From positions 238 to 64,237 of the IMG/VR virus record IMGVR_UViG_3300049016_000019: a stretch of DNA of 64,000 nt; one strand, given 5' to 3'. The notes under the pieces were generated by a model. It did no database searches and was not told where the DNA came from. It saw only the letters and a program-made list of their open reading frames with translations. Of the stretch, positions 26,166 through 30,011 are shown piece by piece. Position numbers and translations under genes: made by a program. This DNA comes from a virus. Every line of letters starts with the position of its first letter. The stretch's first letter is position 1.

Positions 26166-26405
26166 TTATTTATCAGGCGCCTTGCGTAGCCATGCTGGCA
26201 GGCGCGACTCAACGATGGGAGAGTTGAAGACGCGCACAACCCCTGCGGATGCAGCAAGTAGCGTAGCTACGCCTGGCGTGGATACCGGGTCCACGCCCAG
26301 ACCGGCGATGATGACAGGCATGGCCGCCGCCAGCGTGATGGCGAACTGGACAACGGAACGCAGCGTTCGCCTGCCCGAATCGTCCGGCCTCTTGTGACGT
26401 GCCAT
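26166..26405 (-). CDS. Holin (Streptomyces-phage type)
   Basis: RTLRSVVQ..TM..P..TM..RV..P.VE..LPAWLR; directly after endolysin. Confidence 0.75.
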   Translation of the reverse strand: MARHKRPDDSGRRTLRSVVQFAITLAAAMPVIIAGLGVDPVSTPGVATLLAASAGVVRVFNSPIVESRLPAWLRKAPDK

Positions 26406-27310
26406 TAGGTCACCTTCAGCCCCAGCCAGCCAAGCGTAGTCTTGCCGACAATCCCGTCTGCGTCAGAGCCGGTGAAGCCCTGCGCCTTCTGGGCGGCCTT
26501 GACGGCGGCCTTGGTCTGGTTGCCATAGTAGCCAGTAGCGCCCGATGGGATGCTGAACCCCTTTGCTATCAGACGCAGTTGCATCCTCTTGGTGTCACCG
26601 CTACTGAGTCCGTAGCGGATGTGTGACATCCGTACGGTCGGCGGGCCGGGCTTAGGGGCCGGGGGTTTGGCTGCTGGCATCTTGAGAACCTGCCCAACGC
26701 TGATCTTGTTCGGGTCCTTGAGTTCGTTGAGCAGCGCGATCTCGCGCCACACCGTGTGATGGTCCTTGGCGATAGCGGACAGCGTGTCGCCCGACTTGAC
26801 CACGTACTCATCCGTCTTGGGTTCCGGCACAGGTACGGGCTCTGGTTCGGTCTCGACGTACTTGGGACGCCCATAGCCCGCGATGGTGGCAGCGGTCCGC
26901 ACCCGGCGAGCGCACACGTCATCCGTGTTGCCCTCGATGGTGTAGACCTTATCACCGTCCACCTTCTCGACAACGCCAACGTGATCGATACGGGACAGGT
27001 CATTCGTGCCCGTCCAGTCAAAGAACACGATGTCCCCGCGCTTGATGCCGCCCACGTCCACGTGCCACTGTTCTTTTGAACGGAACTTAGCGGCATGCGA
27101 GACCGTGTAGGCATAGTAGTTGTCAAAGCACACCGCGAGGCCGTTGTCCGAGTGGTACGCCCAGTACGTCACGGCAGCATTACACCAAGCGAAGTTGCCC
27201 TGATAGCCAGACAGGTTGACCTTCGTACGGTACCAAGCCTGAATCTTGTTGGGCTCGCCCATGCCCAGACTCTTCTTTGCCTCATCAAGCATGGCCTCAA
27301 CGCCGCTCAT
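26405..27310 (-). CDS. Endolysin: CHAP + LysM + peptidoglycan-binding domain
   Basis: AWCNAAV, GDIVFFDW, IDHVGVVE, TIEGNT; YVVKSGDTLSAIA LysM; TGYYGNQTKAAVKAAQ...DGIVG. Confidence 0.92.
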   Translation of the reverse strand: MSGVEAMLDEAKKSLGMGEPNKIQAWYRTKVNLSGYQGNFAWCNAAVTYWAYHSDNGLAVCFDNYYAYTVSHAAKFRSKEQWHVDVGGIKRGDIVFFDWTGTNDLSRIDHVGVVEKVDGDKVYTIEGNTDDVCARRVRTAATIAGYGRPKYVETEPEPVPVPEPKTDEYVVKSGDTLSAIAKDHHTVWREIALLNELKDPNKISVGQVLKMPAAKPPAPKPGPPTVRMSHIRYGLSSGDTKRMQLRLIAKGFSIPSGATGYYGNQTKAAVKAAQKAQGFTGSDADGIVGKTTLGWLGLKVT

Positions 27311-27471
27311 GAGCCCTCCCCCCGAAAGAAACCAAAATCATCCGGCTCGCCGTACGCCTCGTGGAGAAGTTCTTCCTCGTTCTCGACCGTAGGCCCGTTG
27401 TCGGTGCGGCGGATGCACTTAGCCTGATCCGCCTGATTCATGTCCTCGTTGACAGGTCGGGGGTTGCCCAT
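27307..27471 (-). CDS. Small acidic protein coupled to endolysin
   Basis: DQAKCIRRTDNGPTVENEEELLHEAYGEPDDFGFFRG; ATGA overlap with endolysin. Confidence 0.6.
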   Translation of the reverse strand: MGNPRPVNEDMNQADQAKCIRRTDNGPTVENEEELLHEAYGEPDDFGFFRGEGS

Positions 27472-27481
27472 GCTGTCATCC

Positions 27482-28030
27482 TCACTTGATCGGTGGGTTG
27501 TTGGCGACAAACTCGGAGAGTCGCTGAACGGCCTCGCGATACTTCTGCTCCATCGCTGCCAGTTCACCTACACGACCCTCCAACTTGTTCCGGTTGGCCT
27601 CAAGTTCGCCAATTGCGGCCAGTTGACGGTCCCGTGCTGCGCGGATTTCCGCTTCGGCTTCCTGGGCGAGTTGTGCGTTGGCCTGCTGAGCCTCCGCTCG
27701 CGCTGCGGCCATGATGCGATCCGCTTGCACGTGCGCATCGCTGACCACGTCGTCAGCGGTCCTCTGGGCAAGCTCCAGAATGCGCACCGATGCCTGAGTG
27801 GGAGACTCGGGCGGGGGTTCGATGGGAATCGGGGGAAGGAAGTTCTGGGATTCGATCTTGCGCATCTCCGTGGTGCTACGTATCGCTGCGTCCTCTGCGC
27901 GCCTGAGCGCAGCTTCATAGTCCGCAGCGATCTGATCGAGGAAGTCGTCTACCTCGTTCTGGTCGTAGCCTTCACGGAGCCTGACGGCTGTGAACGTCTT
28001 GTCTTTGATGTCCTGAACTGTCAATGCCAT
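27482..28030 (-). CDS. divIVA-like: DivIVA/Wag31 homolog
   Basis: MALTVQDIKDKTFTAVRLREGYDQNEVDDFLDQI N-domain plus second coiled coil ILELAQRTADD...LEGRVGELAAMEQKYR. Confidence 0.88.
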   Translation of the reverse strand: MALTVQDIKDKTFTAVRLREGYDQNEVDDFLDQIAADYEAALRRAEDAAIRSTTEMRKIESQNFLPPIPIEPPPESPTQASVRILELAQRTADDVVSDAHVQADRIMAAARAEAQQANAQLAQEAEAEIRAARDRQLAAIGELEANRNKLEGRVGELAAMEQKYREAVQRLSEFVANNPPIK

Positions 28031-28055
28031 TGCGGGTTTTCACTTCCGGTGCAGG

Positions 28056-30011
28056 TTAGATACTGACGCCATGTGAGCGCAGCCACTGGATAGGATCATT
28101 AGGGGACGGGTACTGGTTCGCTGAGTCGCGCACCTCGAAATGCAGGTGCGGCCCTGTGCTATTGCCCGTACTGCCCACCCTTCCGATGACCTGTCCAGTG
28201 GATACGGTGTCGCCCGGAACAACGCTCCGGGATGACATGTGCGCGTACAGCGTGTACTTCCCATCTGAGTGTCGGATGATCACATGGATACCGTATGAGG
28301 CACCCCCCGAGGATGCGACTACGGTACCCGCTCCGGCCGCCTTGATAGGCGTGCCGGAAGAGGCTGCGAAGTCGGCCCCCGTATGGAAACCTGAACTCCA
28401 CATGCTACCGCGCGCCCCGTATGGAGTGGAGACGCGGGCCGCGACGGGCGCCACGTAGGCCGCACTGACGGGAGCGGGGGCCGCCTTGACCGGAATGGAC
28501 GCGGCGGCCGGGGCAGCGCCGCCCTGGGGCCGTACAACGCCAGCCACGGTGCCGCCACGGGTTGACATTTTCGACCAGTTCACGCCGTGGTTCGGATGGC
28601 GCGACGCGGTGTCGATCAGGTCGGCGCCGCCGGGGCCGATCGGCCCCACATACAGGGCCACGTGATCCGCATATCCGCTGAACGAGTAAGCGACGATGTC
28701 ACCGGGCTTGATCTGTGAGAGCGGCACGCGAGGCAGTCCGGCAAGCTGCGACTGAGATGTACGCGGGATGCGCACGCCAGCGGCGAGCCACGCCTGCGAC
28801 GTAAGCCCCGAGCAGTCGAACCGCGTCGGCCCGTTCCCGCCCAGAAGGTACGGGGCATCGCTGATCTTGCTCTTGGCGTAGTTCACCGCCACCTGAGCAG
28901 CACTACTGGGCGCGGGCGGGGGCTTGGGAGTTGATGCCGGAGGCTTGGGAGCGGGCGGCGGGCTAGGCGGATCTGACGGCGTGGCAGGTTTTCCGCCGAT
29001 GCCAGGTATCGACAGCCGCTGGCCGGGAAAAATGAGATTAGGATTGGAACCAATGATCGCTTTGTTGGCGTCATAGATCCTGGGCCACTCGGTAGCAGAC
29101 CCGTATTCGGCTGAAGCGATCTTCGAGAGCCAATCGCCAACCCGCACAACATGAGTACTCGCGCCCGAATTCGAGTCGGGCGCGGGTGCCGTGGGGGGCT
29201 TAGGCGCCGGGGGCTTCGGCTTGGGGGTAGACGGAGTCACCTTACCGCCCAGGGTGTAAGAGACATCCTGAATGCCCTGTGAGCGCGGCACGCCCAGGGC
29301 GTCCCATGTCTCAGGCAGAAGGTCGATACCGATCCCCTTGGCCAGGGCTCCAGAGCCAGGGCCACGGTCCACGACGGGGGCCGTGACGCTCTTGCCGGTC
29401 TTCTTACTAGTGATAGTGACCTGTGTCCCGAAGGGGACGTTCCACAGCGCCACACCCTTGAGCGTCGGCGGCGTGTGCCCACCGTTCGCGAGAGGCTGCG
29501 GCTCTTCCGGTCCGCCGAAGTAGGTGGCCTTCGTATTGATCGTCTTGACCGCAGGCGCCGGAGGCTTCGGCTTGGCGGCGGGCGGCTTGGGCTTACTGGT
29601 CGTCACGCCAGGGTTCGGACTGCCCGCCGCGAGTCCCCCGCGCACTGAACAGACCGGCCAGGCGCCTGGCCCCTGGGGACGATTGCCGTTCCAGCCTTCA
29701 TCAAGGACGCGCTCAGCGATGGTGATCTGCTGAGCTTTGGTGGCCATGTCGGCGCGTGGCGCGAACGCCGTACCGCCGTATGCCGCCCAGGTCTGATTGG
29801 TGAACTGGAGCCCACCATAGAACCCGTTGCCGGTGTTGATGCTCCAGTTGCCGCCGCTCTCGCACTGCGCAACCTTGTCCCAGGTCGCTACGGTAGCGGC
29901 ATCTGCGGTCGTTGCCGAGACCAGGGGGAGCGATACTCCGCCCAGGGTGAAGCCTGCGGTCGCGGCGATCTTTCGTGACTTTCGTTCTTTCGGCTTGCTA
30001 CGCCTACCCAT
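28056..30011 (-). CDS. rpf-like: Secreted five-domain peptidoglycan hydrolase: Rpf + RlpA/DPBB + LysM + NlpC/P60 + M23
   Basis: Signal peptide; [23 protein letters not shown]; VVDRGP..IDL; LysM; FDCSG..HVALY; HTGAD..HLH. Confidence 0.9.

Follow-up and report, generated by a model that had tools for sequence, protein, structure and literature searches.

Signal-peptide endolysins, or accessory genes placed before the endolysin gene, are found in Oenococcus phage fOg44 (Lys44) and mycobacteriophage Ms6 (gp1-LysA). Here we describe a block of five minus-strand genes (26166–30011) in a 64,000-nucleotide (nt) window, which makes up most of a 67,057-bp IMG/VR virus record (IMGVR_UViG_3300049016_000019, positions 238 to 64,237; rated complete by CheckV). 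The block encodes an exported Rpf-type wall hydrolase, a compact homologue of the pole organiser DivIVA, a protein of 54 amino acids (aa), an endolysin and a holin-like protein. It resembles the fOg44 and Ms6 arrangements in that a wall hydrolase would leave the cell by the host Sec pathway before the holin acts and a small gene overlaps the endolysin start. It differs from them because a signal-less endolysin is present besides the exported enzyme and because the intervening gene is a DivIVA homologue. The block can be described as a lysis cassette to which a pole organiser derived from the host and an exported Rpf-type hydrolase have been added. We are highly confident that it represents a conserved lysis-associated arrangement, with hydrolase and DivIVA of host origin, in phages of Streptomyces.

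Secretion of the autolysins p60/CwhA and NamA by Listeria monocytogenes depends on DivIVA, which gathers autolysin preproteins at the curved septal membrane (PMC3478244, PMC13471167). The likeness to the window, namely a DivIVA tied to the export of wall hydrolases of the LysM/NlpC-P60 type, is functional only. Moreover, the Listeria route needs SecA2 and belongs to cellular daughter-cell separation, not to a phage. A second precedent is gp52 of mycobacteriophage Fruitloop, a small toxic protein that binds and inactivates Wag31 (DivIVA) to the advantage of the phage (PMC7474061). It is likewise a phage product acting on the actinobacterial pole organiser. However, gp52 is not presented in its published description as a DivIVA homologue, whereas the window gene is itself a DivIVA within a late lysis block. 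The Listeria and Fruitloop cases make a link between DivIVA and lysis plausible.

Both added genes have counterparts in the host. Streptomyces DivIVA (PF05103) shares the N-domain and the coiled coil with the phage protein, but the phage copy lacks linker and tail and lies between lysis genes. Streptomyces Rpf-LysM-M23 proteins share the signal and the Rpf domain with the phage enzyme, which adds NlpC/P60 and a DPBB-like domain. Some cultured phages, REQ1 and BRock among them, also have genes annotated as Rpf-type 'lysins'; unlike those genes, the hydrolase of the clade described here is fixed beside DivIVA and endolysin.

The earlier note on this DNA had claimed five close-packed minus-strand genes ending in a single terminator, and coordinates, domains, spacing and hairpin all proved to be as described. 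Domains were assigned from Pfam and PHROG profile matches, transmembrane segments and signals from hydrophobic segments. Each of the five consecutive open reading frames (ORFs) lies at most 25 nt from the next. The spacing is 25 nt between hydrolase and DivIVA, and 10 nt between DivIVA and the 54-aa ORF if the latter starts at the ATG at 27471. An alternative GTG start at 27567 would create an 86-nt overlap with DivIVA; gene calls on near-identical contigs likewise give 54 aa. The 54-aa ORF overlaps the endolysin gene by 4 nt (ATGA), and endolysin and holin genes overlap by 1 nt. Directly after the holin stop, a hairpin like that of an intrinsic terminator (26123–26157, minus strand) has 15 pairs, 10 of them G-C, and is followed by the T-run TTTTTGTGGTT. 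As the gene on its other side, for a membrane protein, is on the plus strand and converges on the holin gene, the hairpin may work in both directions.

Upstream, 100 bp (30012–30111) separate the last minor tail gene from the hydrolase gene, and this gap could be the sole site for an internal promoter in the window cassette. A scan of 25000–31500 for sigma-70-like promoters found no site. No terminator was found between the cassette start and the tail genes or before the endolysin gene. In relatives, the gap mostly holds a small gene (68–86 aa) or two membrane/coiled-coil genes. The latter were seen in L031 (3802–4605) and L041 (4752–5548) as two extra genes between the last tail gene and the hydrolase. 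They encode a protein of ~150 aa with several transmembrane segments and a ~115-aa protein with an N-terminal transmembrane segment and a coiled coil, and may be further lysis-associated membrane proteins.

The hydrolase (651 aa; 28056–30011, minus strand) is a multi-enzyme protein identified by Pfam and PHROG matches and by its signal. It matched Transglycosylas/Rpf (PF06737; 109.6 bits), NlpC/P60 (58.7), Peptidase_M23 (111.5) and LysM, with Rpf at residues 38–121, LysM at 287–336, NlpC/P60 at 386–469 and M23 at 542–631. A weak RlpA-like DPBB lies at ~154–259, where the sub-threshold DPBB_1 match is backed by phrog_7930 (residues 154–259). The single hydrophobic segment (h-region 15–31), followed by an ADA|AT cleavage site, forms a Sec-type signal that matches the signals of host Streptomyces Rpf proteins. 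The n-region motif G(R/K)H(R/A)(K/R)(P) is common to the phage (window 29880–30011, and relatives) and host Streptomyces Rpf-type proteins, and it is far more conserved than is usual for signal peptides. The catalytic motifs of all three enzymatic domains are intact. The Rpf motif CESGGNW begins at residue 50, and C50 and E51 are invariant across the relatives; eight of nine copies retain the second Rpf cysteine (PVC, ~residue 121), the exception being L030. The endopeptidase motifs are DCSG 399 and DHVA 449, with the catalytic Cys and His, for NlpC/P60, and HTGAD 543 and HLH 622, which supply the HxxxD and HxH zinc ligands, for M23.

The best cellular matches of the hydrolase are Streptomycetaceae 'transglycosylase family proteins' with Rpf, LysM and M23. 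In every hydrolase of the clade the Rpf domain comes first, while NlpC/P60, M23, LysM and DPBB vary in presence and order. The reshuffled order in L024 (8001–10325; Rpf, NlpC/P60, LysM, DPBB-like, M23) indicates domain rearrangement within one gene lineage. In L031 (4131–5973), one reading frame encodes the Rpf part and a second, overlapping one the LysM-M23 part, owing to an assembly frameshift or a split gene. We considered whether the hydrolase is a virion-associated tail lysin. We rejected this in view of the cleavable-looking Sec signal and of the membrane-protein genes that precede the hydrolase in L031 and L041.

The DivIVA gene (27482–28030, minus strand) encodes 182 aa and matched Pfam DivIVA with 44.6 bits (cut-off 28). 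The protein consists of a lipid-binding N-domain (residues 1–62), a short Pro-rich linker and a C-terminal coiled-coil helix (77–177), and has no hydrophobic segment. A phmmer search of the PDB retrieved the B. subtilis DivIVA N-domain and GpsB (2WUJ/2WUK, E ~1e-6). By BLASTP against S. hydrogenans DivIVA, residues 1–47 are 55% identical, including the membrane-binding loop VRLREGYD, and residues 80–175 align with host residues 163–255 (33% over 96 aa, E 3e-12). The host protein has 357 aa, and the difference in size reflects the missing PQG-rich linker (~115 aa) and C-terminal tail (~95 aa). The N-domain carries the family signature F...GY(D/N)..EVD.FLD, and ten phage copies share the invariant residues F13, R17, G21-Y22-D23, E26-V27-D28, L31 and D32. 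In the AlphaFold2 model (mean predicted local distance difference test score, pLDDT, 82.5), short N-terminal helices are followed by a helix at 24–62, a disordered Pro-rich stretch and a single helix of ~100 residues at 77–177 (pLDDT >90). A Foldseek comparison of this mostly coiled-coil model with the PDB gave nothing significant; the top ranks were all GpsB/DivIVA N-domains. If it behaves like other members of its family, the phage DivIVA would oligomerise and accumulate at the negatively curved membrane of poles, septa and tips.

In a phylogenetic tree, the ten phage DivIVAs fall on one side of a branch (Shimodaira–Hasegawa-like approximate likelihood ratio test, SH-aLRT, 92) nested in a well-supported group that also contains Streptomyces DivIVA and Kitasatospora paralogues. 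A single capture from a Streptomycetaceae host is consistent with this topology, though not proven by it because the branches are long. In the N-domain, identity between phage and host (41–57%) is comparable with that among phages (54%).

The remaining genes have the layout of an ordinary lysis cassette. The cytoplasmic endolysin (301 aa; 26405–27310, minus strand) has Pfam matches to CHAP (36–128), LysM (169–212) and PG_binding_1 (238–296), intact CHAP residues Cys43 and His110, and a match to the endolysin family phrog_9589 (7e-36). It carries neither a hydrophobic segment nor an export signal. CHAP is kept in all relatives, while the C-terminal modules differ and total length ranges from 262 to 741 aa. 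The holin-like protein (79 aa; 26166–26405, minus strand) was recognised by hydropathy from two hydrophobic segments and charged ends, and terminates in ...RLPAWLRKAPDK. It has no Pfam match and matches phrog_4316, a PHROG without assigned function. An endolysin without signal next to a small protein with two putative transmembrane segments and charged ends conforms, as far as sequence can tell, to the canonical holin-endolysin layout. Three unrelated holin types occupy the holin position across the clade, among them r1t-type holins (PF16945) in L024 and L028. In L024, the endolysin and r1t-type holin genes are set apart by an inserted ORF (12632–12955) of 107 aa that is Cys-rich and HNH-like. 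The 54-aa protein (27307–27471, minus strand) is acidic (net charge −8), with no Pfam or PHROG match and no hydrophobic segment. Homologues occur at the same position in L022, L023, L031, L041 and L049, and weakly in L030. The ORF is missing from L024, L025, L026 and L028, where DivIVA abuts the endolysin gene, and is present in about half of the lineages.

We computed the ratio of nonsynonymous to synonymous substitution rates (dN/dS) against two close relatives whose hydrolases are 94% and 83% identical. The values were 0.09–0.15 for the hydrolase, 0.03–0.05 for DivIVA, 0.16–0.20 for the 54-aa ORF, 0.07–0.10 for the endolysin and 0.06–0.10 for the holin. As dN/dS lies between 0.03 and 0.20 throughout, the five genes are real. 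Purifying selection acts on all of them, and DivIVA is the most constrained.

A single-sequence DivIVA search of viral contigs and phage records returned no phage relative. Relatives were reached through a hydrolase search and then through an alignment of their DivIVAs. At least 10 diverged relatives show the core order of tail genes, Rpf hydrolase, DivIVA and CHAP endolysin. In L022, L023, L024, L025, L026 and L028/L029, the genes for a 1320-aa tail protein, a DUF5047 tail protein and a ~290-aa tail protein are followed, sometimes after small genes, by hydrolase, DivIVA (164–214 aa), CHAP endolysin and holin. The DivIVA stop overlaps the endolysin start in L025, L026 and L028. The DivIVA alignment added two 68-kb IMG/VR contigs with the same order (L030, L031) and two loci in Streptomyces genomes, L049 in S. 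hydrogenans JCM 4771 and L041 in Streptomyces sp. NPDC015131. The hydrolase-DivIVA-CHAP endolysin order was unchanged, and neither hydrolase nor DivIVA was lost in any clade member examined. This arrangement appears to be more than a frozen accident, because the pair persists while holin, endolysin C-terminus and hydrolase domains are exchanged.

In S. hydrogenans, the contig with the cassette also encodes a terminase and a capsid-protease fusion 59–63% identical to that of the window, and the relative distances match those of the window, which identifies L049 as a collinear prophage. The NPDC015131 locus is on a 900-kb contig that also encodes a terminase homologue, ~23 kb upstream of the DivIVA gene. 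Each of the two genomes has exactly two DivIVA-family genes, namely the host DivIVA (357/358 aa) and the prophage copy. Since two relatives are collinear or syntenic elements within Streptomyces genomes, the host of the phage clade is Streptomyces. For the same reason, that the cassette loci sit inside these genomes, the siphoviruses of the clade are temperate.

Outside the clade, full-length DivIVA was rare. Among 50,697 GenBank phage records, we found no full DivIVA homologue beyond short N-domain fragments and one transduced host gene. The fragments include a 72-aa N-domain protein in the early region of Bifidobacterium phage PMBT6 (11197–11415). A 'DivIVA' at the genome end of Enterococcus phage VEsP-2 stands beside an annotated transduced host-gene fragment and was read as host DNA, and the DivIVA matches in Listeria 'phage' contigs were set aside as unannotated fragments. 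Beyond the clade, IMG/VR yielded only short N-domain ORFs in early regions. Such N-domain-only ORFs, which lie in early/replication regions of PMBT6 and of the unrelated actinophage-like contigs L122 and L123 (G+C content ~56%), are a second, different kind of phage DivIVA fragment. L124 was rejected as a relative because its 561-aa protein shows only coiled-coil similarity. Across 301 Streptomyces species genomes, a full-length match to the phage-type DivIVA occurred only in S. hydrogenans. We also rejected a compact DivIVA paralogue on the chromosome of one other Streptomyces (L137, G238:C1:3914626-3915096; 259-aa open frame) that has no phage cassette nearby; it resembles Kitasatospora DivIVA-domain proteins, the best cellular matches.

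Literature searches on DivIVA with phages, prophages, lysis cassettes, endolysins or SecA2/autolysins returned no description of a phage DivIVA homologue. Likewise, we found neither a published description of the combination of hydrolase, DivIVA and endolysin nor a cultured phage record that carries it. The earlier note had put the block forward as a candidate new system and had proposed synteny as a check. Its impression of novelty holds for the literature and the GenBank phage records searched, and the genes are co-conserved in at least 10 diverged relatives, including the two Streptomyces genome loci. These loci also uphold its assumption of a Streptomyces host, and what it gave as established about the roles of Rpf in germination and of DivIVA in apical growth is correct (PMC5693915).

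How might the extended cassette work? We propose that two genes captured from the wall-growth toolkit of the host have been added to an ordinary pair of endolysin and holin genes. The five genes would be transcribed with the late operon; late co-expression with endolysin and holin is argued from position and tight spacing. The hydrolase, given its host Rpf-type Sec signal, should be exported before the holin fires and would then attack the wall from outside, cutting glycan and peptide bonds. The compact DivIVA, which keeps the membrane-binding loop and has no export signal, would act on the cytoplasmic face of curved membrane and assemble at hyphal tips, branch points and cross-walls. There it would either disable the host polarisome, thereby stopping wall synthesis and repair at the tip, or concentrate export and lysis factors. 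As an outcome, the tip-growing, compartmented hypha may open efficiently. The whole, a late lysis block extended by two host wall-growth genes with DivIVA aiding wall breakdown, is our best explanation, and we hold it with slightly less than even confidence. Its mechanistic part, that DivIVA disables the polarisome or concentrates factors during lysis, is more tentative still. A more specific version is rather unlikely, namely that the phage DivIVA is a self-assembling polar adaptor that fixes the position of lysis at tips, branch points or cross-walls. By concentrating export of the Rpf-type hydrolase, or the endolysin and holin, or both, such an adaptor would open the filament at defined points. 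If true, this would make it the first system encoded by a phage to position lysis, derived from a pole organiser of the host.

Several findings weigh against this explanation. One SecA_DEAD match was found in each of the two cassette-bearing Streptomyces genomes; because these hosts have a single SecA, the Listeria SecA2 route is not literally copied, and we rejected that mechanism in its literal form. The coiled coil is 21–40% identical to the host's and on average 32% identical among phages, values that are neutral on whether mixed oligomers form. Related Rhodococcus phages lyse with endolysin and holin alone. The same type of hydrolase stands without DivIVA or lysis cassette in the ~100-kb contigs L120 and L121, and REQ1 has an Rpf-type 'lysin' near the terminase, again without DivIVA. 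As this architecture occurs elsewhere without DivIVA, hydrolase export needs no phage DivIVA. Finally, the syntenic loci all fall within one phage clade, and their conservation is therefore due in part to common ancestry.

Having the hydrolase only, L120 and L121 were not counted as syntenic relatives; nor were REQ1 and L002, a 92-kb contig, in both of which an Rpf 'lysin' lies near the terminase gene and DivIVA is missing. The lone hydrolase gene in L120 and L121 adjoins Prim-Pol/D5 helicase, WhiB and sugar-modification genes. The Rpf-NlpC/P60-LysM-M23 family as a whole gave 2606 matches at E≤1e-10, many on ~100-kb contigs. We also considered a GpsB-like binding of Arg-rich N-termini (GRHRKP in the hydrolases of relatives, MARHKRP in the holin) and rejected it as specific evidence, because host Rpf proteins share a GRHRR-type signal and because the holin homologues of L025 and L049, as well as the other holin families, do not have the motif.

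The temperate lifestyle of the clade invites readings in which the two genes serve the prophage. DivIVA might mediate superinfection exclusion by interfering with host DivIVA or occupying polar membrane, shutting out phages that depend on the pole or on DivIVA, in which case its position in the lysis block would be incidental. Fruitloop gp52 offers a precedent, as it binds Wag31 (DivIVA) and excludes the DivIVA-dependent phage Rosebush (PMC7474061); a cI-like HTH_3 repressor gene lies beside the cassette, and the phage DivIVA keeps the membrane-binding loop of the host. However, genes for exclusion tend to be switched on early or in the prophage and to lie near the immunity region, whereas divIVA is wedged among late genes with gaps of 10–25 nt, or overlaps the endolysin start in relatives, and the scan revealed no promoter-like site that could serve it. 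We consider exclusion unlikely. Lysogenic conversion meets similar difficulties. Hydrolase and DivIVA would then be prophage-expressed morons, and both host and prophage would gain from the changes that they cause in the lysogen's germination, branching or wall turnover. Both genes do derive from host growth and germination functions (PMC5693915), the cassette is intact in two Streptomyces genomes, and the 100-bp gap precedes the hydrolase gene in the window. In most relatives, however, small genes fill this gap and abut the hydrolase within 1–7 nt, which leaves no room for a separate promoter; no terminator sets the two genes apart from the tail genes or the endolysin, and a lysogen would run a risk by constitutively exporting an enzyme that has three to four active sites. 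This reading is improbable.

Along the lines of the earlier note, Rpf hydrolase released or exported at lysis might instead wake dormant spores or remodel neighbouring hyphae and so provide the progeny with susceptible cells, with DivIVA creating poles for release or adsorption. In Streptomyces, germination is accelerated by Rpf enzymes, and DivIVA marks the sites of germ tubes and tips (PMC5693915). The catalytic Glu of the Rpf domain is intact and invariant and the Cys pair is intact, the second Cys being kept in the eight of nine copies noted above. The NlpC/P60 and M23 endopeptidases, however, fit wall destruction better than signalling, and DivIVA would act only within the infected, dying compartment. 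This is the least probable of the readings considered. It is also conceivable that the pair has no joint function and that two accessory genes, each useful by itself, entered a permissive junction between tail and lysis genes in a single event and were then co-inherited. Consistent with this, synteny is confined to one clade, the hydrolase occurs alone elsewhere and the tree allows a single DivIVA capture. Moreover, Jflix2, a sister Rhodococcus phage with the same tail genes, has an HNH endonuclease gene where hydrolase and DivIVA would be. Yet the region is recombinationally active, with exchange of holin, endolysin C-terminus, small ORFs and hydrolase domains, and neither gene has been lost in the clade members examined; DivIVA is, in addition, the most constrained of the five. 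Mere co-inheritance thus seems distinctly unlikely, although less so than conversion. Our preferred reading remains that of a late lysis block in which DivIVA may aid wall breakdown.

The rest of the window shows a siphovirus gene order on the minus strand, with terminase, portal, protease-capsid fusion and head-tail adaptor genes, followed by a tail module. The latter includes the tape measure gene (36133–40476), after it the gene for the 1320-aa minor tail protein, the DUF5047 tail protein gene (31023–32168) and, as last minor tail gene, that of a 304-aa tail protein (30112–31026). Residues 568–954 of the tape measure protein match PHROG families annotated as endolysin (phrog_971). Its C-terminal region and the M23 domain of the hydrolase match the same tape-measure profiles at neighbouring profile positions. 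The convergent pair that may share the cassette terminator (25398–26143, plus strand) encodes the cI-like HTH_3 repressor (133 aa) and a 114-aa protein with a single transmembrane segment, and is also present in L022 and L023. This pair fits a temperate lifestyle; no integrase was found among the ORFs scanned. Among cultured phages, the Rhodococcus equi phages REQ1, Jflix2, Shagrat and Madraxi come closest, with ~48% identity in the capsid and 55–59% in the DUF5047 tail protein.

Phage proteins that bind DivIVA are already known, and we found no report of a full DivIVA homologue carried by a phage. Its fixed place between two wall hydrolases, together with strong constraint, suggests that these phages use a pole organiser during lysis, a process that is poorly understood in tip-growing, multicellular hosts. 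The system is directly testable, since a collinear prophage with the cassette resides in a strain kept in a culture collection, S. hydrogenans JCM 4771. The phage DivIVA, consisting of a lipid-binding domain and a coiled coil, is a natural minimal DivIVA and would thus be a useful probe of polarisome assembly.

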